DNA of 64,000 nucleotides, taken from positions 226 to 64,225 of the forward strand of contig CAYOIH010000001.1 of NCBI GenBank assembly GCA_964404005.1. The letters are read 5' to 3'. The position numbers and the translations under genes are program-made. The notes under the pieces are model-generated. The model made no database searches and was not told where the DNA came from. It worked only from the letters and a program-made list of their open reading frames with translations. The stretch's first letter is position 1. Each line of letters begins with the position of its first letter. Shown in pieces: positions 2,706 through 64,000 of this stretch. The stretch comes from an uncultured Candidatus Saccharibacteria bacterium. GTDB lineage: Bacteria > Patescibacteriota > Minisyncoccia > Minisyncoccales > Staskawiczbacteraceae.

Positions 2706-3224
2706 ATGTTAAAACAGCAGATACAAAATTCTACTAAAGAAGCCATGAAAGCTGGAGATCAGTTTTTGGTTGGAACTTTGCGTATGTTGTCGGCTTCTAT
2801 TCTTACAAAGGAAAAAGAAAAGCGATATAAAACTTCCAAAGATCACCCGGATTTTGCAGAAGATAAGTTGCTAAAAGAATCAGAATTAACAGACGAGCAG
2901 ATAATTGAGGTTATATCTTCTGAAATTAAAAAAAGAAAAGACGCCGTTGTTTTATACGAACAGGGCAATAGGCAGGAGCTGGCAGACAAAGAAAAAAAGG
3001 AAATTGAAATTTTAATTAAATATCTGCCCGAGCAATTGTCCGAAGACGAATTAAAAAAAATGGTTGAAGAATCAATTGCAAAAGTTAGGGTCGAAATGAA
3101 GGACCCTTCGACAAGCTCAGGGCAAGTTATGGGGAAAGTAATGGCAGATTTAAATCCAAAGATTAAGGGCAAAGCAGACGGCGGGGAGGTAAGTAAAATT
3201 GTAAAAGAACTATTATCTAAATAA
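2706..3224 (+). CDS. yqeY: GatB/YqeY domain protein
   Basis: YqeY-like N-terminal pattern (LKQQIQNSTKEAMKAGD...LRML), ~150 aa Glu/Lys-rich; contains in-frame family-1 repeat (PSTSSGQ). Confidence 0.65.
   Translation: MLKQQIQNSTKEAMKAGDQFLVGTLRMLSASILTKEKEKRYKTSKDHPDFAEDKLLKESELTDEQIIEVISSEIKKRKDAVVLYEQGNRQELADKEKKEIEILIKYLPEQLSEDELKKMVEESIAKVRVEMKDPSTSSGQVMGKVMADLNPKIKGKADGGEVSKIVKELLSK
3104..3124 (+). repeat. family-1 repeat copy (in yqeY, sense)
   Basis: cccttcgacaagctcagggca. Confidence 0.8.
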
Positions 3225-8615: not shown

Positions 8616-9344
8616 ATGATTATTGCCGGACTGCAGAAAACAACTCTAATTGACTATCCAAAAAAAGTTGCCTGTACTGTTTTTTTGACCGGGTGCAATT
8701 TCAGGTGTCCGTGGTGTTATTCTTCGGAGCTGGTTTTGCCCGCAAAAATTGTAAAACAGCCGAGAATTGAAGAGAAAGATTTTTTTGATTTTTTAAGGAC
8801 AAGGCAGGGTTTATTGGACGGAGTTGTAATTTGTGGGGGAGAGCCGACAATAAATAAAGATCTACCCCAGTTTATAGAAAAAATAAAAAAATTAGGTTAT
8901 CTGGTAAAATTGGATACTAACGGCTCAAACCCGAAAATGCTGAAAGATCTGGTAAATACAAAGTTGGTTGATTATGTTGCAATGGATATTAAAACAAAGG
9001 GAGAGAGTCCAGTTTACCAAAATCTTATGACAGAGGGAATTATAATAGATAATATAAAAGAAAGCGTTGAATTTCTAAAGGCCCATTCGACAGGCTCAGG
9101 GCAAACCTGCGGGTTTGATTTTGAATTTCGCACAACAGTTGTAAATACTATTCACGTAAAAGAAGATTTTTTGGAAATCGCGAAATGGATTGGAGGGCCG
9201 GGTGTTAAATATTATTTACAAAATTTCAGAGCTGAAAAAACAATTGACCCGGAATTTGAAAAAGTAGAACCGTTCAAGCAGGCATTTTTAGAGGAAATAG
9301 TAAAAGAAATTTCTCCTTATTTTGAAGAGTGCAAAGCGAGATGA
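8616..9344 (+). CDS. nrdG: anaerobic ribonucleotide reductase activating protein (radical SAM)
   Basis: CNFRCPWC radical-SAM CxxxCxxC cluster; adjacent to nrdD; carries in-frame family-1 repeat (HSTGSGQ). Confidence 0.8.
   Translation: MIIAGLQKTTLIDYPKKVACTVFLTGCNFRCPWCYSSELVLPAKIVKQPRIEEKDFFDFLRTRQGLLDGVVICGGEPTINKDLPQFIEKIKKLGYLVKLDTNGSNPKMLKDLVNTKLVDYVAMDIKTKGESPVYQNLMTEGIIIDNIKESVEFLKAHSTGSGQTCGFDFEFRTTVVNTIHVKEDFLEIAKWIGGPGVKYYLQNFRAEKTIDPEFEKVEPFKQAFLEEIVKEISPYFEECKAR
9082..9103 (+). repeat. family-1 repeat copy (in nrdG, sense; 1-nt insertion)
   Basis: cccattcgacaggctcagggca. Confidence 0.7.
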
Positions 9345-15433: not shown

Positions 15434-15465
15434 AGAAATATAAAACGTAATAATAATATTGAATC

Positions 15466-15555
15466 ACCCTTCGGCAAGCTCAGGGCGCTTCGACTCCGCA
15501 AATTAAATACTTGCGCTGAGCGGAGCCTGAGTCAGACGAAGGCGGAGTCGAAGCG
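15466..15555 (+). repeat. structured palindromic element in clpB 5' leader built on a family-1 repeat copy; sequesters the SD
   Basis: gcttcgactccgc (15487-15499) is perfectly complementary to gcggagtcgaagc (15542-15554), which overlaps the GGAG SD just before the GTG start at 15555; 5' part ccttcggcaagctcagggc is family-1 consensus. Confidence 0.55.
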
Positions 15556-20589: not shown

Positions 20590-21654
20590 ATGGATTTAGG
20601 TAATTTAGAAAAAGTTTTGGAAAATGAGCCGGAGTATCGCTTAAAACAGGCGAGAGAAGCGGTTTATAAAAATTTTATCTCTGATTGGTCAGAGGCAACT
20701 TTTTTTACAAAAGATTTACGAGATAAGTTAAATAAAGAATGTCCGCTAAAAATTGAGGCAGATGTTTTAATTTCAAAAAAAGAAGACAGCGTAAAAGCTA
20801 GGATTACCCTAAAAGACGGATTAAAAATTGAAGCTGTTTTAATGCGTCATAAAGATGGCAGGAATACCGTTTGCGTTTCTTCGCAGGTTGGATGCCCTTT
20901 GGGATGCCTTTTTTGTGCCACAGGAAAAATGGGTTTTAAAAGAAATTTAACTTCTGATGAAATTTTAGAGCAGGTGATATTTTTTAGTCGGTATCTAAAA
21001 AATATCACCCTGAGCGAAGTCGAAGGGTCATCCATGCGTGTGACTAATGTCACTTATATGGGAATGGGAGAGCCGTTTTTGAATTATGAAAATGTTTTAA
21101 AATCTATAAGAATTTTAAATAATAAAGACTTTTTTAATATCGGGGCCCGGTCAATTTCTGTTTCAACAGCTGGGATTATTGAGGGTATAAAAAAGTTTAG
21201 CGAAGAAGGTTTACAGCTAAATCTGGCGATTTCTCTACATGCGTCGAACAACGAACTCAGAAAATCTTTAATGCCAATAAGTAAAAAATATTCATTGGAA
21301 GATGTTTTAAGGGCAGTTGATGAATATATTGAGAAAACTAAAAGAAAAGTGATGTTTGAGTATGTTTTAATTGACGGCGTTAACGACTCTGAAGAACACG
21401 CTCAAGAGCTAGCAAAATTAATGCGCAACCCTTCGACTTCGCTCAGGGCAAGGAAATTATATTTTTTAAACTTAATTCTTTACAACGCAACCCCGCCTTC
21501 TTCGGGGCAAGCAGAAATATTTAAGCCTTCAAAAACAAAAAACGTTGAAAAGTTTAAATCTATTTTAGAAAAAAACAAGGTTAATTTTGTTCAGCGTTAC
21601 AGGTTTGGTGATGACATAAACGCGGCTTGTGGGCAATTTGTCACCAATAAATAA
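20590..21654 (+). CDS. rlmN: 23S rRNA/tRNA adenine-C2 methyltransferase RlmN (radical SAM)
   Basis: VCVSSQVGCPLGCLFCATG radical-SAM cluster, MGMGEPFLNYENV; contains two family-1 repeat copies in opposite orientation. Confidence 0.8.
   Translation: MDLGNLEKVLENEPEYRLKQAREAVYKNFISDWSEATFFTKDLRDKLNKECPLKIEADVLISKKEDSVKARITLKDGLKIEAVLMRHKDGRNTVCVSSQVGCPLGCLFCATGKMGFKRNLTSDEILEQVIFFSRYLKNITLSEVEGSSMRVTNVTYMGMGEPFLNYENVLKSIRILNNKDFFNIGARSISVSTAGIIEGIKKFSEEGLQLNLAISLHASNNELRKSLMPISKKYSLEDVLRAVDEYIEKTKRKVMFEYVLIDGVNDSEEHAQELAKLMRNPSTSLRARKLYFLNLILYNATPPSSGQAEIFKPSKTKNVEKFKSILEKNKVNFVQRYRFGDDINAACGQFVTNK
21006..21027 (-). repeat. family-1 repeat copy (in rlmN, antisense)
   Basis: revcomp = cccttcgacttcgctcagggtg. 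Confidence 0.8.
21429..21453 (+). repeat. family-1 repeat copy (in rlmN, sense)
   Basis: cccttcgacttcgctcagggcaagg. Confidence 0.8.
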
Positions 21655-21757: not shown

Positions 21758-21871
21758 CCCCGTTAGAGATCATTAGGGGTAGGGTTTAGTTATTTTTAAA
21801 TATTGCGAATCAGTTTTGGATCGTAAAGACGTTTTTTAAATTTTTTTGTGGGCAATAAATCTCTAACGGGG
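21758..21871. repeat. family-2 inverted-repeat element (13-nt perfect TIRs, 88-nt spacer)
   Basis: ccccgttagagat (21758-21770) ... atctctaacgggg (21859-21871). Confidence 0.55.
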
Positions 21872-21906
21872 TTTACTTTTATTTTTTTTCTTGTTAGATT
21901 TTAGGA

Positions 21907-22632
21907 ATGCAAGATAAATTTCTAAACCCCGTTAGAAAGGCCGAGTTATCTGGACAAGATAATGTTTTTGGAAATAATGAGAAAGAAATACAACATGGAC
22001 AATCATTTTTAGAAATTTCTAAAAAAGAAATTTCTAAAAACAGGCTTTCTAACGGGGTAAAACTAACAAACACAGTTTATAAAGTGCTTGAGTTTTTTCC
22101 GGAATCAGATCCGTTAAAAAACAGGGCAAAAGATCGGGTGTTATCCATAATGGAGTATCTGACACTGATTGATAAAGGCAGTAATGATTCTGTAATTAAA
22201 ACTCATATTTCAGAAGATATAGATGTGCTTTTGGGCTATCTTTGGATAGGCAAATCGCAGGGTTGGTTAAACTCGTCTAACTGCCTTATAATCTCTAATG
22301 AATATGAAAAAATAACCCTTCAGCTTCGTTCAGGGCAGGAAAAAGAAATAGAACCGGCGATACCCGACAAAAGTCCCGCCGTTGCGGGACAATTTGACGG
22401 GCCCGCCATAATCTCGCCAATGGCGAGTTTGGGCGGGGAGCAGTTAGGCACTCGGCAGAAAAAAATTCTTGAATTTTTAGGTAAAAATGAAAAAGCGCAG
22501 GTTATGGATTTACGGGCGATATTGTCGGATGTCACAAAGAGAACCATAAGAAGGGATTTAGACGAATTACTTGAAGCCGGTAAAATAGTAAGATTGGGGG
22601 AGTTTAATCAAGTTTTTTACAAGACTAAGTGA
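21907..22632 (+). CDS. hypothetical protein with C-terminal winged-helix/DeoR-like HTH; N-terminal ~50 codons overlap a family-2 IR element so true start uncertain
   Basis: C-terminus QKKILEFLGKNEKAQVMDLRAILSDVTKRTIRRDLDELLEAGKIV is DeoR-N/HTH-like; carries family-1 copy (LQLRSGQ). Confidence 0.4.
   Translation: MQDKFLNPVRKAELSGQDNVFGNNEKEIQHGQSFLEISKKEISKNRLSNGVKLTNTVYKVLEFFPESDPLKNRAKDRVLSIMEYLTLIDKGSNDSVIKTHISEDIDVLLGYLWIGKSQGWLNSSNCLIISNEYEKITLQLRSGQEKEIEPAIPDKSPAVAGQFDGPAIISPMASLGGEQLGTRQKKILEFLGKNEKAQVMDLRAILSDVTKRTIRRDLDELLEAGKIVRLGEFNQVFYKTK
21927..22058. repeat. family-2 inverted-repeat element (13-nt perfect TIRs, 106-nt spacer)
   Basis: ccccgttagaaag (21927-21939) ... ctttctaacgggg (22046-22058). 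Confidence 0.55.
22317..22339 (+). repeat. family-1 repeat copy (in HTH ORF)
   Basis: ccttcagcttcgttcagggcagg. Confidence 0.75.
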
Positions 22633-23397: not shown

Positions 23398-24159
23398 ATG
23401 ACAAAAATAACACAAAAAAAACTTATAGAGTCGTTGTCGCAACTCAAAGAAATAAAACCCAGGAAAGAATGGGCTGTTTTGCTTAAGTCGCAAATCTTGG
23501 CTTCGCCCGCCGAAGCTTTAGCGCAGGAGGGCAGAAAAGCATTGGTTCAAAAAACCAGTATTTTAGATATTTTCTCTTCGGTGTTCTTCCCCTTCGGCGG
23601 GCTCAGGGCAGGCAGAAAATTGGCATATGCTTTTTCAGTCATTCTTTTGTTTGTTGTAGGGGTTTTTGGGTTTGCTGAATATACAGTTCCCGGGGACATG
23701 CTATTCCCGATGAAAAAAATTGCCGAGCAGTCGCAGGCAGCTTTGACAGGACAAACCAAATTAAATCAAGACGTCGCAACGCTAAATAGCAGAATAAACG
23801 ATTTGGCCCAAGTTGCAAAAGCAGGGAGAAAAGACAACATTCCTTCGGCAATAAGTGAGGTTTCAGCAAACGCATCACAGTTGGCAAAAAGCTTAAAAGA
23901 TAATCCTGTAAACGACCCGCAGACACTTAAAGAAATTGCGATTAGTTTAAAAACATTAGCCGACGTACAGGGAACTGACTTAACCGCTACGCCTGGCATA
24001 AGCGACCTTTATCAGACATTAGACCAAAACGAGATTAACGATTACCAAAAAACAACTTTAACAGAAGACCAGCAGAATATATTGGCTGAAGCAGAAGATT
24101 TATACAGTCAGGGGAAATATTATGAAGCGTTCGAAAAAATATTAACAATAGGTAATTAA
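23398..24159 (+). CDS. putative membrane-anchored anti-sigma factor (by position downstream of ECF sigma)
   Basis: single TM (YAFSVILLFVVGVFGFA) after a short cytoplasmic N-domain; carries family-1 copy (FPFGGLRAG). Confidence 0.35.
   Translation: MTKITQKKLIESLSQLKEIKPRKEWAVLLKSQILASPAEALAQEGRKALVQKTSILDIFSSVFFPFGGLRAGRKLAYAFSVILLFVVGVFGFAEYTVPGDMLFPMKKIAEQSQAALTGQTKLNQDVATLNSRINDLAQVAKAGRKDNIPSAISEVSANASQLAKSLKDNPVNDPQTLKEIAISLKTLADVQGTDLTATPGISDLYQTLDQNEINDYQKTTLTEDQQNILAEAEDLYSQGKYYEAFEKILTIGN
23591..23613 (+). repeat. family-1 repeat copy (in putative anti-sigma gene)
   Basis: ccttcggcgggctcagggcaggc. Confidence 0.8.
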
Positions 24160-24217
24160 AATTATAACTGACTCGGCAAGAAACTCGTACTTTTTTGCCG
24201 ATTATTAAAAAAATAAC

Positions 24218-24357
24218 ATTTGACGAGTCGTTTGTTCGTGATTAGTACGCTCGCCCCGTTAGAAATCTGCGGTAAAAACCGCGAATTTCTAACGGGGTAA
24301 ATCGCGAGCTATAGATAAATTAAATATTTGACGAGTCGTTTGTTCGTGATTAGTACG
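24218..24357 (+). repeat. 32-nt perfect direct repeat (24218-24249 / 24326-24357) flanking a family-2 IR element (24254-24296)
   Basis: atttgacgagtcgtttgttcgtgattagtacg x2; between them ccccgttagaaat-ctgcggtaaaaaccgcga-atttctaacgggg. Confidence 0.65.
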
Positions 24358-24474: not shown

Positions 24475-26424
24475 ATGAGTATTAAAAGAACAATTATAAC
24501 AACCATATTGGCATTGGCCTTGGTTGCAACAGTTGCTCCTGCAACAACTCAAGCTACAACAATTGACGATTTGTTAGTTCAAATCGCTTCACTTCAAGCT
24601 CAGTTGGTAGCCCTACAAGGAGGCAGCAGCACACCAGTTCCAACTGGAATAGTTGCTTGCTCAGGAGTTACATTCACAAGAGATTTAACAGTTGGCGCAA
24701 CAGGATCAGATGTAAAATGCTTACAGGTCCTTTTAAACACCAACGGCTATACACTTGCAACAGCAGGAGCAGGATCACCTGGGATGGAAACATCTTACTT
24801 TGGTCCAATAACCTTGTCGGCTGTTAGAGCATTCCAGGCAGCAAAAGGATGGACACCTGCAAATCAGGTTGGCCCATTAACAAGAGCAGCATTAAATACA
24901 CTTATCGGTACAACACCGACAACACCAGTTACCCCAACAGCAGGATGCCCGGCAGGAGCAGTTTATAACTCCGTAACCGGAGCATTATGCACAGTAGCAA
25001 CACCTGGAGCAACAGGATTTATTGATGCAGGTACATTGTCTCCTTCGCCAGCAGATAACGCAAATGTTATAACAACATCAAACGTTCCTGTGTTAGGATT
25101 AAATGTTAAAGCAATCGGCTCTAACATGACAGTTACCAGCGCAAAGGTTCAGTTAGCAATAAGTACTGGAGAGCATCCAGCCAACGTAGTGCAAAACCTT
25201 TATGTCTATGACGGAAGCACATTATTGGGTTCATACCCGGTTAATACAAGCACCGTTGTCAAGACCACAACCACTTACTATTTAATCTTGTCAGGATTCA
25301 ACTTTATGGTTCCTGTCAACACTACAAAAGTATTGACTGTTACAGCTGACTTCAATCCATCATTAGAAACAAGCAGAACCCTAACAGTTAACTTGGTTGA
25401 TACGTCTTCATTAAGAGCAGTTGACGGAGCCGGAGTATATACAACCGGTGGCGTAGCTACAGCCAGAACCTACGTAATAGCATACGCAACTGTTGGAACC
25501 TCAACACTGGCAGTTACCACTAACGTTTCTACTCTTGATTCAACTTCGGTTAATGTAAACCACACCAGCGGCAGAACAGATGTTCCAATGTTTATTTTCA
25601 GCGCAAAATCGTCAACAGGAGCTTCTACAATAACAGACTTAGTCCTTACAGCTCAGGGAGATGCCACAGGAATTGCATCAATGTCAGCTGTAAAATTGTA
25701 TGACGGTTCAACATTATTGGGTTCGGTTGCATTAAGCAGCGCAGTATCTGGAGCAACAGCTACATTTACTGACCTTTCAATCCCTGTAGCAAAAGATGCT
25801 ACAAAAACATTTACTGTAAAGGCAGACTTTTCAGCAGCTGTAACTCAAAGCACTTTGGGTGTAAACTTGTCTATATTAATTCCGGCTCACGACGTTACTT
25901 TCGACGAACCGAATTTGACATCAGCACATCCTACAGCATCTGCAGCAGTCTCCGGAAACGCTATGTATTTGTATGACGGTGTAGCAACAACATTTACACT
26001 TGTTAGCGCATCATCTTTATATGAATACAACTCCACAGTGCCGTCAACGTCTTGGACAACAGGTACAATTACCTTGAAGGTTCACTCAGACGGTGGAACT
26101 ACAGTAATGCCACTTTCTGCGCACTTCACAGTTAATGCCTACAGAAACGGTAGCTCAATGGGAGCAGCAGTCACACAGTCTATTACAGTAACACCAGAGT
26201 CTACTATTTCTGATGGCAGTGACGCAGTAGTAGTTATCAATCTTTCAGAGCCAGTAGGATCTGTGGCAGCCGGCGTGGTAGACTCTTTCTCTGGCACTGG
26301 TGCTATTGATTTCAGAGTAGACAGCATTTCATGGCAGTGTTCAGATGGTACACTTACATCCACAGAAGCAAGTCAGGATTGGGGAATATCTACCTTCAAG
26401 ACACCTACAGCAAACGCTCAGTAA
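24475..26424 (+). CDS. secreted Thr/Ser/Ala-rich surface protein with N-terminal peptidoglycan-binding domain (PG_binding_1) and three ~150-aa beta-rich repeats
   Basis: signal peptide; GATGSDVKCLQVLLNTNGY...FGPITLSAVRAFQAAKGW (PGBD); repeated YVYDGSTLLGS / KLYDGSTLLGS / YLYDGVATT modules. Confidence 0.55.
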   Translation: MSIKRTIITTILALALVATVAPATTQATTIDDLLVQIASLQAQLVALQGGSSTPVPTGIVACSGVTFTRDLTVGATGSDVKCLQVLLNTNGYTLATAGAGSPGMETSYFGPITLSAVRAFQAAKGWTPANQVGPLTRAALNTLIGTTPTTPVTPTAGCPAGAVYNSVTGALCTVATPGATGFIDAGTLSPSPADNANVITTSNVPVLGLNVKAIGSNMTVTSAKVQLAISTGEHPANVVQNLYVYDGSTLLGSYPVNTSTVVKTTTTYYLILSGFNFMVPVNTTKVLTVTADFNPSLETSRTLTVNLVDTSSLRAVDGAGVYTTGGVATARTYVIAYATVGTSTLAVTTNVSTLDSTSVNVNHTSGRTDVPMFIFSAKSSTGASTITDLVLTAQGDATGIASMSAVKLYDGSTLLGSVALSSAVSGATATFTDLSIPVAKDATKTFTVKADFSAAVTQSTLGVNLSILIPAHDVTFDEPNLTSAHPTASAAVSGNAMYLYDGVATTFTLVSASSLYEYNSTVPSTSWTTGTITLKVHSDGGTTVMPLSAHFTVNAYRNGSSMGAAVTQSITVTPESTISDGSDAVVVINLSEPVGSVAAGVVDSFSGTGAIDFRVDSISWQCSDGTLTSTEASQDWGISTFKTPTANAQ

Positions 26425-26990: not shown

Positions 26991-29307
26991 AAATCAGTGT
27001 AGATAGAAAGCTATCTATCTGGTCTTCCAGCTCAGGATTTGATTTAATAACTTCCGAAGCAATTTGTCTGGCCATGTTATAATTTCCTAATTCTTTGTAA
27101 ATAAGCATTATAGAAGTTTTGTATTGTATTTGTGAGCCGTTTATTACAAATAGTTTTTGATACAGGGGAAGCATTTCTTTATAGTTTTTGGTTTCCAAAT
27201 AAGCAGCCACCAGTTGCCTTAAAGAAATTTCATTTTCAACAGAATATCCGTCTTCTTTTGCTTTTTCTACAAATTCTTTTCCCGTTTTAACATCTCCCAA
27301 ATAAATATTAATTAATCCGGACATCCATAGGCAATCGCGGATTTTTGGGAATGTTTTTAAACAATAAACAGATTTTTCCTTTGCTCCCTTTAAATCTCCA
27401 AAAGAGACGTCAGCCATAAAAAAACTAAAAAGAATTGAGGGGTCTCTGGGGCTTAGTTCCATAGCCCTCTTAAAAGCTTCGTCGGACTTTTTTATAATTT
27501 CCGGGTCTTTGTTTTCTTTTGCGATTGTTGCCAGAGATTCTCCCAAGCGTAACCAATTTCTGTAGTCATATGGTTGTAATATTGTATTCTCTCCGGAAAT
27601 TTCTTTAACTTTTTGTGAAACAGAGCTATTTTCTTCGGGATGCGCAATAATCCTGTCTATTAGCAAATTTAAATAAACAGAATTGGCATAGGGGAGGAAA
27701 AAGGTGTTTATTTTGGACTGTTCATCCATAATTTTTATAGTATCTTTCCAGTTTTTCGATGATTCTGCCCGCGCAATAACAATTTGTTTATTCATTTGTA
27801 GAGGAATAAGATTATATTGCCATAAGAATATTATTAATATCAAAAATAAAATGACTATTATTATTGGTTTCCACCAGGTACTGTTTTTAGGTTCAGCGTT
27901 TTTCAGCGCCGTTATCAGCGTAGCATCAGCATTATTCAATGAAATTAAATGCAGTGAATAAGCAGATAAAAAGAAAAAAATAAGCATAATAGCAGCGCCG
28001 TCAATGGACGCCAAGCCAGCTATAAAAAAAGCTATGAATCCCGCTTGTAGTCCATGGGCAACCGGGTATTTTTTCTTGATTTTTTGGAGGCCCCATAATA
28101 ATGAAAGGAAAAAAACAAGGTAAAAAATTAAAGCAAAAATTCCGGAATCAACCAAAATTTGTATTAAATAATTATGCGCCCTGTCAAAATCTTTTATGTC
28201 TTCCATTGCAGGCAAATTGGGGTCATAGTGTTTGTTGAAAGCAACGTAAAAGTTTTCCGGCCCATATCCAAAATATGGCTTTTCAAAAAAAGCCGATATC
28301 GATATTTTCCAGGCAGATATTCTTGACGGGTCAACTGCAGCGCCTGTTGTCAGCGATGCTGTCCGGCCGACAGTGTCTTTTATTAAGTTGGGCATCCCTG
28401 CATAAATTTGAGGGTTGGCACTTAAAAAGAAAAGAAAAAAAATAAATACCATTGGTAAAACTACGGCACTTATTTTTAACCACTTAAATTTTTTAGGACT
28501 CGCCCCGTTAGAGATTACATTATCTCTAGCGGGGTAAAAAATTAAAAAACAAAAAAGTCCAACCAACATGCCTAAAATAGCAGCTCTTGTTTGGGTTATA
28601 AAAATAATTACAAAAGAATAAAAAATAACAAGGAACAAATAAGAGTATTTTTTTACTTTATTTGCTTCTGATATAAAAAATGATAAAGAAAGAAAAAGAA
28701 GCGGTAAAAGGTAAAGAGCAAGAATTATTGGATTTCCCAATGTTGAGCTTGGCCTGTAAGTTGTTACGGCCAGAAATGATGCAAAAAATCCAAATTGCTG
28801 AAGGACAGCTATTAACCCTACCAAAAATCCGATAATCAATGAAAAATCAAGCAGTTTTTTCCAGCTTGCCTCGCCCGTTGGCGGGTCTTCTTTTTTTATA
28901 ATTGAAAAACAGAAGATGCAGAAAAGGATAAAAAACGAAAAATTAATAAATCCGGCGCCTCTTTCTGGGGTTCCCCATAAACTACGGGAAACATCCAGGG
29001 AAAATAATGTTGAAATAAAAACCGCGAAGAAATATGCCAAAAGCGAAATTAACGGAAGAAAGGTTTTCGTGTGCGGATTAAAAACTTCTTTAAAATTTAC
29101 CTGCCCTGAGCCGTGCCGAAGGGTTTTTTCTTTAACCAAATAAATAAAACCCAAAACCGCCAATAGCGACCTAAAAACAATGGCCTGTGTGTATGCCGAG
29201 GGAGTAAACCATGGCGGAACATTTAAAGCCGGCAAGGCTAATATTATAAAGAACCCAGCTATATATAACCAGTAAAAATTGTTACTTTTTTCGTTGATTT
29301 TAGCCAT
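26980..29307 (-). CDS. Wzy_C/O-antigen-ligase-family membrane protein with C-terminal TPR repeats (possible protein O-oligosaccharyltransferase)
   Basis: ~12 TM helices, ITQTRAAILGMLVGL Wzy_C motif, C-terminal TPR-like helical repeats; contains in-frame family-1 (TLRHGSGQ) and family-2 (PARDNVISNG) repeats. Confidence 0.6.
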   Translation of the reverse strand: MAKINEKSNNFYWLYIAGFFIILALPALNVPPWFTPSAYTQAIVFRSLLAVLGFIYLVKEKTLRHGSGQVNFKEVFNPHTKTFLPLISLLAYFFAVFISTLFSLDVSRSLWGTPERGAGFINFSFFILFCIFCFSIIKKEDPPTGEASWKKLLDFSLIIGFLVGLIAVLQQFGFFASFLAVTTYRPSSTLGNPIILALYLLPLLFLSLSFFISEANKVKKYSYLFLVIFYSFVIIFITQTRAAILGMLVGLFCFLIFYPARDNVISNGASPKKFKWLKISAVVLPMVFIFFLFFLSANPQIYAGMPNLIKDTVGRTASLTTGAAVDPSRISAWKISISAFFEKPYFGYGPENFYVAFNKHYDPNLPAMEDIKDFDRAHNYLIQILVDSGIFALIFYLVFFLSLLWGLQKIKKKYPVAHGLQAGFIAFFIAGLASIDGAAIMLIFFFLSAYSLHLISLNNADATLITALKNAEPKNSTWWKPIIIVILFLILIIFLWQYNLIPLQMNKQIVIARAESSKNWKDTIKIMDEQSKINTFFLPYANSVYLNLLIDRIIAHPEENSSVSQKVKEISGENTILQPYDYRNWLRLGESLATIAKENKDPEIIKKSDEAFKRAMELSPRDPSILFSFFMADVSFGDLKGAKEKSVYCLKTFPKIRDCLWMSGLINIYLGDVKTGKEFVEKAKEDGYSVENEISLRQLVAAYLETKNYKEMLPLYQKLFVINGSQIQYKTSIMLIYKELGNYNMARQIASEVIKSNPELEDQIDSFLSTLIYAD
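28503..28534. repeat. family-2 inverted-repeat element, 6-nt spacer, in-frame inside Wzy_C gene
   Basis: ccccgttagagat tacatt atctctagcgggg (1 mismatch). Confidence 0.55.
29101..29122 (-). repeat. family-1 repeat copy (in Wzy_C gene, sense to that minus-strand gene)
   Basis: revcomp = ccttcggcacggctcagggcag. Confidence 0.8.
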
Positions 29308-30127: not shown

Positions 30128-30871
30128 ATGCAATCAAATAAAAAAGTGGGAATTTTGGGATATGGTGAAATCGGCCAGGCAATTGCCAAGTTTTACAAAA
30201 ACCCGAAGATTAAAGATTTAAAAAGGGATGAAGGCCTTGAAGGTATCGAAATTTTGCATATTTGTATCCCCTGGTCAGATAAATTTGTAGAAATTGTAAA
30301 AAAACAGATAAAAGAAACAAATCCAAGGCTTACAATCATCCATTCTACCGTGGCCCCCGGAACCACAAGGAAGATTATCAATGGCTTGCCCCGAGCTTGT
30401 CGAGGGGTTGTCCATAGTCCTGTAAGGGGCATACACCCGAAGTTATATGAGGGAATAAAAACGTTTGTAAAATATATCGGCGCCGATGACAAAAAAGCCG
30501 GGCAAATGGCAAAAAAACATTTTAAAAGTTTAGGGATAAAAACAAAAACTTTTTATCCGACAACCACCACAGAATTAGGAAAAATTTTAGATACTACCTA
30601 TTACGGTGTTTGTATCGCCTGGCACGGCGAAATGAAAGAGATATGCGATAAGTTCGGCGTTGATTTTGAAAGTGCAGTGACAGATTTTAATAAAACTTAT
30701 AATGAGGGGTACACAAAGCTTGGGAAAAAGAATGTTGTAAGGCCAGTTTTATATCCGCCTCAAAATGGTAAACCAAAACACTGCATCATCCCAAACGCTG
30801 AAATTCTCAGCCGATACTACAAAACGCCGATTTTCGAATTATTATTGAAGAAGTATAAAAACAAACTTTAA
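30128..30871 (+). CDS. Rossmann-fold NAD(P)-binding dehydrogenase-like protein (nucleotide-sugar dehydrogenase N-domain-like)
   Basis: VGILGYGEIGQAIA dinucleotide fold; HSTVAPGTT resembles UDP-sugar dehydrogenase N-domain; only 247 aa. Confidence 0.3.
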   Translation: MQSNKKVGILGYGEIGQAIAKFYKNPKIKDLKRDEGLEGIEILHICIPWSDKFVEIVKKQIKETNPRLTIIHSTVAPGTTRKIINGLPRACRGVVHSPVRGIHPKLYEGIKTFVKYIGADDKKAGQMAKKHFKSLGIKTKTFYPTTTTELGKILDTTYYGVCIAWHGEMKEICDKFGVDFESAVTDFNKTYNEGYTKLGKKNVVRPVLYPPQNGKPKHCIIPNAEILSRYYKTPIFELLLKKYKNKL

Positions 30872-51888: not shown

Positions 51889-52664
51889 TAGAAGAAAGAA
51901 AAAAAACAGAAATTAATCATTATGACAGAAAAGCATCGGAATGGTTAAAAAAAGAACAAAGAGGAGATTTTGAGGGATTCAACCCTTTTTTATTATCCGG
52001 TTATAAATTTTTGCAAGAATATTTAAGAGATAAATGTAAGGGCAAAAAAATATTAGATTACGGCTGTGGCAATGGAGTACATTATCCCTGGTTAGTAAAA
52101 TTTGGCGGAGAAGTTGTGGGCGTAGATTTGTCTGAAAAATCTTTAGAGGTAGCCAAAAAAATAGCAGAAAAAGGGGGGATAAGCGATAAGGCCAAATTTT
52201 TAATTGCAGATTGTGAAAGATTGGAATTTTCCGATAGTTCATTCGATATAATATTTGATGGCGGTACCTTCTCTTCTTTAGACCTAAATAAGGCATACCC
52301 AGAATTAGCTAGAGTTTTAAAGCCGGGAGGGTTTTTGATCGGTATAGAAACTTTTGGACATAATCCGTTCACAAATTTAAAAAGGCAGATTAATAAAATT
52401 GTAGGCAGAAGAACCGGCTGGGCAGCGTCTCATATATTCAGAAATGATGATATAAAAAAAGCAGATACTTTTTTCGGAAAGAAGCAAATATTTTATTTTC
52501 ACCTTATTTCTTGGGCCGCATTCCCTTTATTAAAAATCACAGGAGGTGTTTATCTTTTGAAAATATTGGAGGTTTTTGACAGGATTTTATTAAAAATTTC
52601 ATTCTTTAAAAAATATTCTTTTAAAGTAGTGTTTATATTTTCTGATCCCAAAAAACAATTATGA
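51885..52664 (+). CDS. class I SAM-dependent methyltransferase
   Basis: ILDYGCGNGVHYPWLVKFGGEVVGVDLSEKSLEVAKK, LKPGGFL; ATG at 51885 overlaps the previous stop (ATGA). Confidence 0.6.
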   Translation: MIEERKKTEINHYDRKASEWLKKEQRGDFEGFNPFLLSGYKFLQEYLRDKCKGKKILDYGCGNGVHYPWLVKFGGEVVGVDLSEKSLEVAKKIAEKGGISDKAKFLIADCERLEFSDSSFDIIFDGGTFSSLDLNKAYPELARVLKPGGFLIGIETFGHNPFTNLKRQINKIVGRRTGWAASHIFRNDDIKKADTFFGKKQIFYFHLISWAAFPLLKITGGVYLLKILEVFDRILLKISFFKKYSFKVVFIFSDPKKQL

Positions 52665-52668
52665 TAAA

Positions 52669-52745
52669 CCCCGTTAGAAATTTTACTAAATGGGGATAAT
52701 AAAATAAAGATAATTAGTATGAAAAAACCTGCTATTTCTAACGGG
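52669..52745. repeat. family-2 inverted-repeat element spanning the RBS and start codon of the PglC-like gene
   Basis: ccccgttagaaat (52669-52681) ... atttctaacgggg (52733-52745); the second arm encodes ISNG of the protein N-terminus. Confidence 0.55.
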
Positions 52746-53336
52746 GTAAAAAGATTGTTTGATATAATTTTTTCTGCGATAGGGTTGGTAATTACTTTTC
52801 CAATATTTTTATATGTGGTTTTTTTGATTAAAAGGGAATCGCCCGGGCCGATTTTTTATCGAGCACAAAGGATTGGTAAAAATAGAAAAGCTTTTGTAAT
52901 GTATAAATTTAGGACAATGGTTGTTGGCGCCGATAAAATTGGGGGACCATCAACCGCCGCCGACGACCCCAGGCTTACAAAAATCGGCTTATTTCTAAAG
53001 AAGTACCAACTTGATGAATTGCCCCAACTTATAAACGTTTTTAAAGGCGATATGAGTTTTGTGGGACCAAGGCCAGAAGTGAAGATATACGTTGATATGA
53101 TGACAGAAGAGGAAAAAAATGTTATCTTATCGGTACGTCCCGGTATTACAGACTTGGCATCATTATGGAACTTTCACGAGGCAGAAATATTAAAAGGAAG
53201 CACAGACCCGGAGAAAACATATATGGAGGAAATAAGACCCGAAAAGTTAAGACTCCAGCAAGAATATGTAAAAAAATCTTCTATTTGGCTGGACATTAAA
53301 ATAATTTGGCAGACGGTTTTAAAGGTATTTAAATAA
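52719..53336 (+). CDS. small initiating phosphoglycosyltransferase (bacterial sugar transferase, PglC/WbaP-C-terminal type)
   Basis: KRLFDIIFSAIGLV (re-entrant helix), PGPIFYRAQRIGKNRKAFVMYKFRTM, DELPQLINVFKGDMSFVGPRP. Confidence 0.8.
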   Translation: MKKPAISNGVKRLFDIIFSAIGLVITFPIFLYVVFLIKRESPGPIFYRAQRIGKNRKAFVMYKFRTMVVGADKIGGPSTAADDPRLTKIGLFLKKYQLDELPQLINVFKGDMSFVGPRPEVKIYVDMMTEEEKNVILSVRPGITDLASLWNFHEAEILKGSTDPEKTYMEEIRPEKLRLQQEYVKKSSIWLDIKIIWQTVLKVFK

Positions 53337-59376: not shown

Positions 59377-61101
59377 ATGGAATTTTTCAGCTACAAAAAA
59401 ATAATTTTTTTGGCCGGGGTTTTATTGTTTTTGGCTGTTGGCAATGCTAGAGCCGCTAATGTAGGAGAGGTCGTTAATTTTAATGTAGATAAAAGTTTTG
59501 ATATTAACAGCAGAACAAAACTGTCGGCCACTTTGATAAAAACAAGCGATAAACTGTATTTTTATGTAGATAAATCGTGGTGGGAACAGCAGACGCAGGC
59601 AAAACAAACAGAAGCTTTAACCGGCTTAGATAATTTATCTAATGAGTTTAATAATAATATTTATCCGACCATGACCTCTGTTTTTGGCTCGGAGTGGAAA
59701 CCGGGCATAGACAACGACCCCAGAATTACAGTTTTATTTGAACCAATAAACAGCTCAGAGGGAGGATATTTTAGAGAGGCAGACGAATATGAAAAACTCC
59801 AAGTGCCAACCTCCAATGAAAGGGAAATGCTTTATTTGTCTGTTTCGAGCATTAATGACCCAAATGCAAAAATAGTTTTAGGCCACGAGTTCACCCATTT
59901 AATAACTTTTAACCAAAAAAATAAAATTTATGGAGCAGAAGAAGATACGTGGTTAAATGAGGCAAGGGCAGACTATTCTTCAACTATTTTAGGATACGAC
60001 GATGTTTATAACGGCAGTAATTTGCAACAGAGGGTTAAAGATTTTACAGAAAATCCTTCCGACTCCATAACCGATTGGACCGGTACAAAATATGATTACG
60101 CCAGCGTAAGCCTATTTATGCACTATTTGGTTGATCGGTATAGCGTGAATATTTTATCTAATTCTTTAAGGTCTCAATCAGTTGGCATAGAAAGTATAAG
60201 CCAGACCCTGGCGAAGCCGGCGTCTAAAGAAAATTTTTCACAAATTTTTACTAATTGGACAATAGCTTTGGCAATTAATGACTGTTCTCAAAATTTAAAA
60301 TATTGCTACTCTAATCAAAATCTTAAAGACCTGAGAATAAACCCAACGCTTATTTTTATGCCGTTAACGGGCAGTAGTTCTTTGTCTACAACAAACATAA
60401 CTAAAAATTGGGCAGGTAATTGGCAAAAAATTATTGGGGGAAGCGGAAATTTAAAATTAGATTTTTCCGGTTTGACCGGGCTTGATTTTCAATTACCGTA
60501 TATACTTTACGACAAAGACAATAATTATTCGGTAAAATTTTTAACGCTTGACCAGGAAGAGAAAGGAGAAATCAGTGTTCAAAACTTCGGAACAGATTAT
60601 AAATCCCTGATTATTATCCCTTCTTTACAGACAAAGCTTTCCGAGTTTGATGGCTTAGACCTTACTTACCCATACAGTTTTACGGTTTCTGTCGCGGAAA
60701 AAGATTTGGGAACAGACGACACATTAATACAAAAACTTTTGGCTCAGATAGCCTCTCTAAAAAAGCAAATAGCAGATCTTATCGCCAAAAACCCTTCGGC
60801 AGGCTCAGGGCAGGCAAGTCAAAACAATAGCTGTTCGCAACTAACAACTAATCTTTATTTTGGACTAATTAATAGTAGCCAGGTGACGTGTCTGCAACAA
60901 TTTTTGAAAAATCAAGGGACAAACATTTATCCCGAGGGTTTGGTAACCGGATATTTTGGAAATTTAACAAAGTCTGCCGTGATAAAATTTCAGGAGAAAT
61001 ACGCATCTGAAATTTTAACACCTATAGGGCTTTCGCAGGGAACCGGTTATGTGGGAGCACAAACAAGAGCGAAAATTAACCAAATAATGAGCGGTGTTTA
61101 A
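59377..61101 (+). CDS. secreted protein with HExxH (putative zinc metallopeptidase) and C-terminal peptidoglycan-binding-like domain
   Basis: signal peptide; VLGHEFTHL ... NEARADY (gluzincin-like spacing); C-terminal LQQFLKNQG...GYFGNLTKSAVIKFQEKY; carries family-1 copy (PSAGSGQ). Confidence 0.35.
   Translation: MEFFSYKKIIFLAGVLLFLAVGNARAANVGEVVNFNVDKSFDINSRTKLSATLIKTSDKLYFYVDKSWWEQQTQAKQTEALTGLDNLSNEFNNNIYPTMTSVFGSEWKPGIDNDPRITVLFEPINSSEGGYFREADEYEKLQVPTSNEREMLYLSVSSINDPNAKIVLGHEFTHLITFNQKNKIYGAEEDTWLNEARADYSSTILGYDDVYNGSNLQQRVKDFTENPSDSITDWTGTKYDYASVSLFMHYLVDRYSVNILSNSLRSQSVGIESISQTLAKPASKENFSQIFTNWTIALAINDCSQNLKYCYSNQNLKDLRINPTLIFMPLTGSSSLSTTNITKNWAGNWQKIIGGSGNLKLDFSGLTGLDFQLPYILYDKDNNYSVKFLTLDQEEKGEISVQNFGTDYKSLIIIPSLQTKLSEFDGLDLTYPYSFTVSVAEKDLGTDDTLIQKLLAQIASLKKQIADLIAKNPSAGSGQASQNNSCSQLTTNLYFGLINSSQVTCLQQFLKNQGTNIYPEGLVTGYFGNLTKSAVIKFQEKYASEILTPIGLSQGTGYVGAQTRAKINQIMSGV
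60793..60815 (+). repeat. family-1 repeat copy (in HExxH protein gene)
   Basis: ccttcggcaggctcagggcaggc. Confidence 0.8.
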
Positions 61102-63168: not shown

Positions 63169-64000
63169 ATGTCAATTTTATCTAAGATTTTTGGGGACCC
63201 TAATGAAAAGTTTATAAAGGGGCTCCATCCCATTATTGAGAAAATAAATTCTTTTGAGTCGGAATTTGAAAAATTTTCTGCGGAGCAGTTAAAAGAAAAA
63301 ACCCTTCAACTTCGTTCAGGGCTGGCAAAAGGTAAAACGCTTGACGATATTATGCCTGAGGCTTTTGCGTTGGTGCGCGAAGTGTCAAAAAGAACTTTGA
63401 ATCAACGCCATTTTGATGTGCAGTTGATCGGCGGAATTGTTTTACACCAGGGCAAAATTGCTGAAATGAAAACAGGAGAAGGAAAAACTTTGGCGGCTAC
63501 GCTTCCTGCCTACCTGAACGCGTTGGAAGGAAAAGGAGTGCACATTGTTACAGTGAACGATTATCTGGCAAAAAGGGATATGGTTTGGATGGGGCAGATT
63601 TACGATGCTTTAGGATTATCTACGGGTTGCATTGTAAACGAATCCGGCTACGTTTACGACAGGGAATATAAAAATACTGAGGAGGATAAGGCTCGCGATA
63701 CAGTGGGCAGTTTTAAGGTAATCCAGGATTATTTGAAACCGGTTTCAAGAAAAGAGGCGTATGCCGCGGACATTACTTATGGAACTAACAATGAATTCGG
63801 TTTTGATTATTTAAGGGACAATATGGTTTTTGACTTGTCCCAGCAAGTCCAGCGGGGACACAATTTTGTTGTTGTTGATGAAGTAGACTCAATTTTAATT
63901 GATGAGGCGCGGGTTCCTTTAATAATTTCCGGCGAAGTGCAGGAAACAACGGAAAAATATTATACTTTTGCAAAAGTTGCAGCCCAGTTGGAAAATGGCC
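63169..64000 (+). CDS. secA: preprotein translocase ATPase SecA (5' part, runs off window)
   Basis: [67 protein letters not shown]; carries family-1 copy (LQLRSGLA). Confidence 0.9.
63303..63326 (+). repeat. family-1 repeat copy (in secA)
   Basis: ccttcaacttcgttcagggctggc. Confidence 0.75.

Follow-up and report, generated by a model that had tools for sequence, protein, structure and literature searches.

A REP-like hairpin repeat takes the place of an equal length of native secA codons in a bacterium of the candidate phyla radiation

Bacteria of the candidate phyla radiation (CPR) have tiny, gene-dense genomes. We analysed a stretch of 64,000 nucleotides, here called the window, from an uncultured Candidatus Saccharibacteria bacterium (assembly GCA_964404005.1, contig CAYOIH010000001.1, positions 226 to 64,225 of the forward strand). 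The secA gene begins close to the right-hand end of the window, and an earlier note, made from the letters alone, had pointed out that a short repeat, here called family 1, overlies a conserved segment of this gene. In our preferred reading the segment is a copy of a mobile or propagating repeat resembling the repetitive extragenic palindromes (REP), and we find that native codons have given way to it without any change of length. Other copies of the same family generally add length to their host genes, and we consider below how the copy in secA may have come to add none.

Results

The copy in secA

The features of the secA site are as follows.

63169 to 64000, forward strand: first 277 codons of secA (Pfam SecA_DEAD, E 1e-103; ungapped against solved SecA)
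63292 to 63301, forward strand: A-rich 5' flank AAAGAAAAAA, native secA, the same as the 5' flank of the wzy copy described below
63302 to 63322, forward strand: core of the family-1 repeat, 21 nt, CCCTTCAACTTCGTTCAGGGC
63323 to 63332, forward strand: 3' flank TGGCAAAAGG, native secA, encoding Leu-Ala-Lys-Gly

The gene starts with the ATG at 63169 and continues past the end of the window. Codons T45 to A53 (63301-63327) read ACC CTT CAA CTT CGT TCA GGG CTG GCA, which gives TLQLRSGLA, and the core swaps in base for base for seven native codons, turning KEFKER into LQLRSG. The 3' flank TGGCAAAAGG occupies the place that the element tail, AGG or AAG, takes in other copies. The position given in the earlier note (63303-63326) was right within a base.

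We aligned SecA with its relatives. All of 120 relatives (60-87% identity) showed no gap in the replaced stretch, through KT........KG.TLDD, and nearly all of them read KTKEFKERLAKGETLDD or similar there. A search with a 61-aa segment added 49 short SecA fragments, which had the same ungapped length and none of which carried the element, and the sequences of solved SecA proteins (C. difficile SecA2, E. coli, B. subtilis and T. maritima) aligned ungapped over query residues ~1-150. The claim that the repeat overlies a conserved segment at constant length is thus confirmed by ~170 relatives together with the solved proteins. At the nucleotide level the window reads AAAAAAC-CCTTCAACTTCGTTCAGGGC-TGGCAAAAGG and the nearest element-free relative, L002, reads AAAAAAC-AAAAGAATTTAAAGAAAGAT-TGGCGAAAGG. 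Within the 20-nt block 14 of 20 positions differ, with a net length change of zero, conserved flanks and sharp edges, and the similarity to the repeat persists on this correct alignment.

The block replacement is therefore real and far beyond chance. That LQLRSGLA is no more than ordinary helix divergence, or the result of a misalignment, is so improbable as to be negligible: the 21-nt core is common to 10 other loci against 0 expected, it shows 100% identity between genes whose overall identity is only 83-84%, and the ungapped alignment leaves no room for a hidden offset. We also rejected an assembly artefact, since orthologous copies with substitutions of their own are found in independent JGI, ENA and NCBI assemblies, and removal at the RNA level, as for an intron-like or bypass element, since the copies are in frame and stop-free and removal from secA would cost conserved helix residues.

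Two further observations were made on secA in its relatives. A loop eight residues downstream of the element (~63328-63340) holds inserts such as NPPAGGGE and NPLTGGGE, and KPARIATPARNAVSTAGWQSVAGG in P0091, which resemble other GC-rich repeat families; this loop accepts extra length and the helix just before it does not. In addition, secA is called as two to three successive open reading frames (ORFs) in the contigs of several relatives (L001 5497-7801, L002 8079-9782 and L003 3614-6041), for which either assembly frameshifts or real disruptions could apply.

The repeat family in the window

We counted the copies by two methods, a regular-expression scan and an nhmmer profile of the 64-kb window, and both agreed on exactly 11. 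In addition to the secA copy, which starts at 63302 on the forward strand, these are the following.

3104 to 3123, forward strand: copy in yqeY (DPSTSSGQ)
9083 to 9102, forward strand: copy in a radical-SAM, nrdG-like gene (AHSTGSGQ)
15465 to 15552, forward strand: composite GC-rich insertion of 88 nt between a clpB promoter-like region and the GTG start codon, with a family-1 copy at 15467-15486
21007 to 21027, reverse strand: copy at rlmN site 1 (TLSEVEGS), antisense to the gene
21429 to 21449, forward strand: copy at rlmN site 2 (NPSTSLRA)
22316 to 22336, forward strand: copy in a DeoR-HTH gene (TLQLRSGQ), the one most closely related to the secA copy
23590 to 23609, forward strand: copy in a DUF5667 gene (PFGGLRAG)
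29103 to 29123, reverse strand: copy in a minus-strand Wzy_C/O-antigen-ligase-like gene (TLRHGSGQ), in sense orientation
30388 to 30407, reverse strand: copy in an unassigned ORF, its stem altered in a compensatory way (CCCC...GGGG)
60792 to 60811, forward strand: copy in the variable linker of a peptidoglycan-binding-domain protein (NPSAGSGQ)

The aligned copies give the consensus A-CCCTTCGRC-N3-4-GCTCAGGGC-ARG, with a G+C content of ~65% in a window of 37%. The 24-mer of the earlier note has a second match (at most 3 mismatches) at 22317, with 0 expected from 100 shuffles, and a repeat search clusters the secA copy with copies at 21420, 22307 and, in inverse orientation, 29089. Copies lie inside ORFs in 10 of the 11 cases, in all three sense frames and on both strands, and the host products recognized by Pfam are YqeY, two radical-SAM enzymes including RlmN, DeoR-HTH, DUF5667, Wzy_C, a peptidoglycan-binding protein and SecA. 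Since 94% of the window is coding, this proportion is what random placement gives, and the mild excess of sense copies may be accounted for by a TGA in one antisense frame. The base preceding the core is an A in 17 of 20 independent sites (P ~1e-6), and a run of AAA stands directly 5' of the core in 7 of the 20 (P ~1e-4).

The core is predicted to form a weak hairpin, with folds from -3.6 to -8 kcal/mol. Its stem, CCCT/AGGG plus an inner G-C pair, shows changes on both sides in 4 pairs, which 0 of 500 shuffles reach, among few, hand-picked sequences. No Rfam family reached the gathering threshold in the window, with only chance-level matches around the clpB composite, and a search of the literature on element-encoded peptides returned nothing relevant. 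Besides its family-1 copy the clpB composite contains an inverted degenerate copy and a long inverted repeat (GCTTCGACTCCGC/GCGGAGTCGAAGC), and it provides a GGAG ahead of the start codon; L006 has the composite, L008 is without it and L004 has a different sequence there.

The copies are not evenly spread: the 30 kb from 30410 to 60790 hold none, against ~5 expected under even spacing (P ~0.005). This stretch carries paralogous genes of the sugar-nucleotide and glycosyltransferase type at a G+C of 35.8% against 38.4%, and may be a polysaccharide island that turns over fast or was gained more recently. In rlmN, a third site (21491-21508) holds a different GC-rich hairpin, CCCCGCCTTCTTCGGGGC, followed by AAG, and ~7 codons are absent there from three aligned close relatives, while many more distant RlmN relatives have HSTGSG, PSAGSG or similar peptides in this place; the element family thus appears to have looser relatives. 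Short inserts of several families share a hot spot in the loop of rlmN site 1 (~21000-21030), where relatives P0125-P0190 have SGGSPSSALF, ATDPRGLSADRPRGSV, VARGRTPSNF, IDRHRVSIQA and others, all unrelated.

Net length of the other copies

The earlier note had suggested replacement rather than insertion and had raised the question of whether other copies, such as those in nrdG and yqeY, are also length-neutral. We measured net length as the difference between a host gene and its element-free orthologue, which could be done for eight window copies. The gain was exactly 24 nt in five of them: wzy (a clean addition relative to L012, AAAGAAAAAA-CCCTTCGGCACGGCTCAGGGCAGG-TAAAT), the nrdG-like gene (8 codons, relative to L036), deoR (relative to L008), rlmN site 2 (again clean, relative to L004) and rlmN site 1 (8 aa relative to the 331-aa RlmN forms). 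With the DUF5667 copy, which adds 21 nt relative to L008, six of the eight gain 21-24 nt, and the remaining two are the copy in the variable linker of the peptidoglycan-binding protein (+9 nt net, relative to L003) and secA itself. The yqeY copy adds 7 aa relative to B. subtilis YqeY (1ng6). Replacement therefore describes the secA copy and not the family, and the other copies did not prove length-neutral.

Copies in relatives behave similarly, with +5 aa for htrA in L006 (relative to the window and L004), +7 aa for a third-site rlmN copy in L010 (relative to the window and others), +8 aa for an unnamed gene in L090 (relative to L096) and +2 aa for a methyltransferase-like gene in L035 (relative to L020 and L017). 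In L048 (8769-8860), a metagenome-assembled genome of Moraniibacteria, four in-frame units stand in tandem with a period of 24 nt directly after an A-run, reading TLRQAQDG three times and then TLRQAQGG, in a gene resembling the beta subunit of a thiamine-diphosphate enzyme. The ends of the element stay constant next to unrelated flanks. From the net gains and the L048 tandem we take the unit to be 24 nt, or 8 codons, and its usual outcome to be insertion into a permissive loop. Since the family normally inserts, secA is an exception, and one that lies in a length-constrained segment.

The secA copy in relatives

Scanning metagenomes for the junction between element and secA, we found the copy at the same site and in the same register in L090, L094, L096, L097, L098 and L001. 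SecA of L090 and L094 is 92% identical to that of the window and the core is identical; in L096 (86.5%) the core differs by one base. In L097, L098 and L001, with SecA 77% identical to the window, the core reads CCTTTCGACTTCGCTCAGGGC, which in L097/L001 makes three bases different from the window core, and the two variants can be told apart, the window group having A7/T14 and L097 having G7/C14. We built a tree of SecA N-terminal sequences with the element region excluded, in which the deeper nodes are weak (bootstrap 8-48%). A group made up of the window, L090 and L096 (bootstrap 93% and 48%) is sister to the element-free P0001, P0003 and P0004 (joint clade 83%). L097 falls outside the window clade, and monophyly of the four element-bearing sequences has 0% bootstrap. 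The sliding-window identity between the window and L097 shows no rise beside the element (0.53 at nt 91-120; 0.77 at nt 151-180). Taken together, the position of L097 and its unraised flanks indicate that the same net-zero product arose at least two times, or that a very short patch moved between lineages.

A second secA copy is present in L001 and L097, in antisense near residue 477, where DPEHSRRV stands for SPEEAEEV without a gap. L096 has a diverged element at this second site, with arms CCCTGAG...AAGGGT and a centre that is still a native-like Glu-Glu-Ala in G-ending codons, and L090, sister to the window, is without the second copy. Two other sequences were considered and not counted as elements: P0117 (KTLRLKERV) is suggestive of a partial element at the protein level and its DNA is not element-like, and the resemblance in L100 (KTSELKERL; ACTTCGGAGCTTAAGG) is faint.

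We compared orthologous copies across four taxa at third codon positions. These were invariant in 7/7 cases for rlmN site 1, 7/8 for rlmN site 2 and 5/8 for secA, or 19/23 when pooled, against a background of 37% for codons with an invariant amino acid (pooled P ~1e-5) and of 8-19% for codons ending in G or C. Between the window and L090, secA is 83-84% identical overall and the element is identical at 30 of 30 positions. The copies thus stay constant at synonymous sites while their genes diverge, so something preserves the nucleotide sequence itself; this could be a function of the sequence or a continued homogenisation from other copies.

Distribution of the core

Matches to RlmN put the organism beside Ca. 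Staskawiczbacteria, within the Parcubacteria. As a rough taxonomic sample, consisting mostly of distant taxa, we used RlmN-centred loci from many phyla, ~1.2 Mb altogether. Among the RlmN matches listed, the motif was found only in Staskawiczbacteria-like loci, in one other locus of Parcubacteria and in one of Moraniibacteria, and it was missing from ~70 loci belonging to further CPR groups, to Elusimicrobia and to Chloroflexi. Carriers among the relatives have 1-4 copies per locus of 2-21 kb, and three loci of SecA relatives have none. Outside this sample, a metagenome contig of 69% G+C has the core three times in one intergenic region (L091 7980-8135), and it also occurs on plasmids from Sphingobium, with as many as 19 places in one record, and from Comamonas, Moraxella, Polaromonas, Novosphingobium and Microbacterium, in no case with an annotated feature under the plasmid match. 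On a Sphingobium plasmid (L099 1440-1545) and a Comamonas plasmid (L102 19990-20075) the copies form intergenic inverted doublets just past stop codons. The doublet core, in Proteobacteria as in L091, reads CCCTTCGAC-NNN-GCTCAGGGC-GAACGG, and the core as a whole spans Parcubacteria and plasmids of Alpha-, Beta- and Gammaproteobacteria and Actinobacteria. With these doublets taken into account, the family is best described as a REP-like hairpin repeat that is genic where intergenic space is almost nil. We know of no named description of such a doublet-forming family, nor, to our knowledge, has a short dispersed repeat of this kind been described in CPR bacteria.

Other repeats in the window

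Two further repeats were observed that belong to intergenic or upstream DNA. A direct repeat of 35 nt, 97% identical (AAYATTTGACGAGTCGTTTGTTCGTGATTAGTACG), occurs at 24215-24249 and 24323-24357, the starts being 108 nt apart, upstream of a gene that starts at 24475. A motif TTTCTAACGGGGT(A/T)AA, found between genes in both orientations (21857-21889, 22034-22061, 24274-24301, 52651-52683 and 52723-52750), may be a promoter, a terminator or a regulatory signal.

Discussion

Origin of the secA copy

An overwrite and an insertion with a compensating deletion had both been envisaged in the earlier note, and both are live explanations for secA. We tentatively favour the latter, in which a 24-nt insertion was offset by a 24-nt deletion. 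The unit comprises an A, the imperfect hairpin core of 20-21 nt, CCCTTCGRC-N3-4-GCTCAGGGC, and a tail ARG; it would land in genes right after A-runs and persist where it is in frame and tolerated. In secA it would have gone in after AAAGAAAAAA, ahead of CAAAAGAATTTAAAGAAAGACTGG-CAAAAGG, and the adjoining 24 native nt would then have been lost, probably by slippage between CAAAAG direct repeats exactly 24 nt apart, which the 3' end of the element would extend to C(A/T)GGCAAAAG. Such a deletion would have brought back the invariant length, leaving the hybrid end CAGGGC-TGGCAAAAGG, and selection on an essential, length-constrained protein would keep only the net-zero derivative. The data show that the segment belongs to the family, that a block was replaced, that the unit is 24 nt, that the other copies are insertions and that the nucleotide sequence is conserved; we infer that insertion preceded deletion, that slippage took place and that an agent mobilises the unit. 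In the reconstructed ancestor, native secA reads AAAAAA-CAAAAGAATTTAAAGAAAGACTGG-CAAAAGG, with CAAAAG twice, 24 nt apart, and a simulated 24-nt insertion followed by deletion between the GGCAAAAG repeats yields the observed sequence save one base. Exact 6-mer repeats at a spacing of 24 are found at 0.09% of window positions. Further, the secA copy is without the usual AGG tail and reads CTGG, the native Leu codon, which is exactly what the deletion junction would yield.

Several observations weigh against an insertion followed by a deletion. Living relatives without the element have an imperfect CAAAAG repeat, matching at 5-6 of 8 positions at a spacing of 24, and further spacings do equally well; the perfect repeat exists only in the reconstruction, and the argument is post hoc. 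No secA longer by 24 nt (...AAAAAACCCTTCNNCTTCGYTCAGGGCAGGCAAAAGAATTYAAAGAA...) was seen among ~170 SecA relatives, although the junction scan could not have detected one. The presence of the same net-zero product in L097 and L001, outside the window clade, would require that the two steps happened twice or that recombination spread their product, and the second net-zero copy, in secA of L001, has no obvious 24-nt direct repeat. Nor was a transposase or other mobilising gene identified within the 64 kb, where ORFs beyond the host genes were not screened.

Nearly as likely is a templated patch made in one step, in which single-stranded DNA copied from another element and its A-rich flanks, such as those of deoR or wzy, anneals at microhomologies in secA in the course of replication or repair, is incorporated and replaces whatever lies between them. 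The net length would then be set by the position of the microhomologies, and in secA only a net length of zero would be viable. The secA core is identical at 21 of 21 positions to the deoR copy of L004, whose flanks GAAAAAATAA/AGGAAAAAG are like those of secA (AAAGAAAAAA/TGGCAAAAG), matching at 7/10 and 8/10 positions in what is low-complexity A-rich DNA, and the wzy copy has a 5' flank of 10-11 nt in common with secA. Site and register recur in non-sister lineages whose flanks carry no sign of a long recombination tract; at the second site of L001 the native edges resemble the arms (CCAGAA against CCTGAG; GAAGAAGT against GAAGGGT); and the net lengths form a series of 0, 0, +6, +9, +15, +21 and +24 nt. 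A patch would be a simpler account of recurrence and homogenisation than insertion plus deletion, ongoing homogenisation would explain the identity of orthologous copies at synonymous sites, and a documented mechanism exists in SPDIR (short-patch double illegitimate recombination; bioRxiv 10.1101/2023.11.22.568220). Nevertheless, the majority of copies add exactly 24 nt and have the same ends beside unrelated 3' flanks, which a discrete unit fits better than patches bounded by chance microhomology. Likeness of flanks is weak evidence in A-rich coding DNA rich in Lys and Glu, no carry-over of bases from a donor flank is visible, and the intermediate net lengths come from orthologues 50-80% identical and from variable loops, where later indels are likely. 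The templated mechanism hinted at in the earlier note is hence a hypothesis, kept alive by the same-site copies that are not monophyletic, by the second net-zero copy and by the 21/21 match with deoR of L004.

The lineage distribution by itself could also reflect a single ancient replacement in secA that was later spread or removed by homologous recombination of secA segments, a reading compatible with any mechanism of origin. It would agree with the copies at both secA sites in L096 and L097, with L090 lacking the second, and with the weak bootstrap of the deeper nodes in the tree. We regard it as unlikely, given that the window and L097 show no higher identity beside the element and that the two carry different core variants. 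Even less probable is a gradual assimilation, in which a motif favoured at the DNA level by a binding protein, by a bias of uptake or repair or by selection for the hairpin draws native codons into its sequence by point substitution and without indels, as for uptake sequences or HIP1. Such a process is length-neutral by construction, the invariant third positions show that some force acts on the DNA, and the second secA site of L096 resembles a partial state. However, 14 of 20 bases differ at once at the first site and no intermediate is found there among ~170 relatives, which makes assimilation unlikely at this site; point mutation cannot yield clean 24-nt insertions or tandem units; and the core occurs in distant phyla as intergenic doublets, unlike a lineage-specific uptake signal.

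A broader reading, which we hold to be rather doubtful, is that the repeat is more than tolerated junk and acts as a DNA-level signal actively written into coding sequence and maintained there by a short-patch, template-directed process, which would overwrite codons of an essential gene at constant length and do so repeatedly at the same secA site. If true, REP-like repeats would have a previously unrecognized route of spreading, and the process would explain the identity of the copies at synonymous sites despite a divergence of ~20% between host genes.

Significance

Our results show that a hairpin repeat of REP type, distributed across phyla, survives in CPR genomes inside proteins, as inserts of eight residues. 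Such inserts account for many of the small indels and odd peptides (of the PSTSSGQ, LRQAQG, PFDKLRA, SLSKG and VEG types) in alignments of CPR proteins, and their constancy at synonymous sites means that the sequence itself, as DNA or RNA, is acted upon. The outcome in secA is a rare one, in that conserved codons were overwritten at constant length. If a template was used for this, secA would provide a case from nature in which short-patch ectopic conversion shapes essential genes, and also a means of approaching the movement of REP-like repeats, which is still poorly understood.

Comparison with known systems

REPs and their doublets (REPINs) are mobilised by RAYT tyrosine transposases. The element resembles them in being a short (20-40 nt) imperfect palindrome with many dispersed copies and a stem backed by compensatory changes, and in its arrangement on the Sphingobium and Comamonas plasmids, where the core forms intergenic inverted doublets as in a REPIN. 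Doublets were seen in the plasmid loci and the clpB composite, and the genic copies are singletons. It differs in that 10 of the 11 window copies are genic, mostly single and, judging from their reading frames, translated in frame, whereas the plasmid copies are extragenic; REPs inside genes have been reported in other species (PMC3733652). It differs further in that the GTAG/CGTC tag is absent from the alignment of copies (A-CCCTTC...CAGGGC-ARG), that the unit is a multiple of three and one copy replaces codons, and that no RAYT was identified in the 64 kb, with ORFs beyond the host genes unscreened.

The small dispersed repeats (SDRs) of cyanobacteria, reportedly described by Elhai et al. 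in 2008, are said to be dispersed hairpins of 21-27 nt with compensatory changes, embedded in other sequences, nested or in tandem, regarded as mobile and limited to one cyanobacterial subgroup, the families SDR1-8 being those of heterocystous cyanobacteria. The 24-nt unit, its dispersal, the tandem array of four and the covarying stem recall them. The sequence and the phylum are different, however, and the core spans Parcubacteria to plasmids of Proteobacteria and Actinobacteria, in a comparison made with SDRs by description only. The Rickettsia palindromic elements, reportedly described by Ogata et al. in 2000, are said to be in-frame insertions of ~100-150 nt in genes, including essential ones, that always add length. 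They share with the present repeat the nature of selfish palindromic DNA that sits in frame in protein-coding genes, essential ones included, and is translated as an extra surface peptide, but the unit here is 24 nt and adds nothing in secA.

The uptake signal sequences and DNA uptake sequences (USS/DUS) and the cyanobacterial HIP1 motifs arise by substitution. Like them, the element is an over-represented short genic motif, present on both strands, length-neutral in secA and conserved beyond coding constraint; in contrast to them, it mostly occurs as insertions of 24 nt or as tandem units, and it is not specific to one lineage. SPDIR is comparable to the event at secA in that a short stretch is replaced by ectopic sequence between microhomologies, with clustered substitutions and with or without a change of length. 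It is a rare mutational accident, though, and is not known to spread a specific repeat, and the donor for secA is a candidate one. The mobile G+C clusters of yeast mitochondria and their translational-bypass elements (byps), the latter skipped by the ribosome, are likewise short hairpins of high G+C scattered over a compact, AT-rich genome, coding regions included, but the copies of the present repeat are in frame, stop-free and presumably translated. Set against these systems, the element belongs with the REP-like repeats, of which it is a new form, intragenic and in frame, in the genome of a CPR bacterium.

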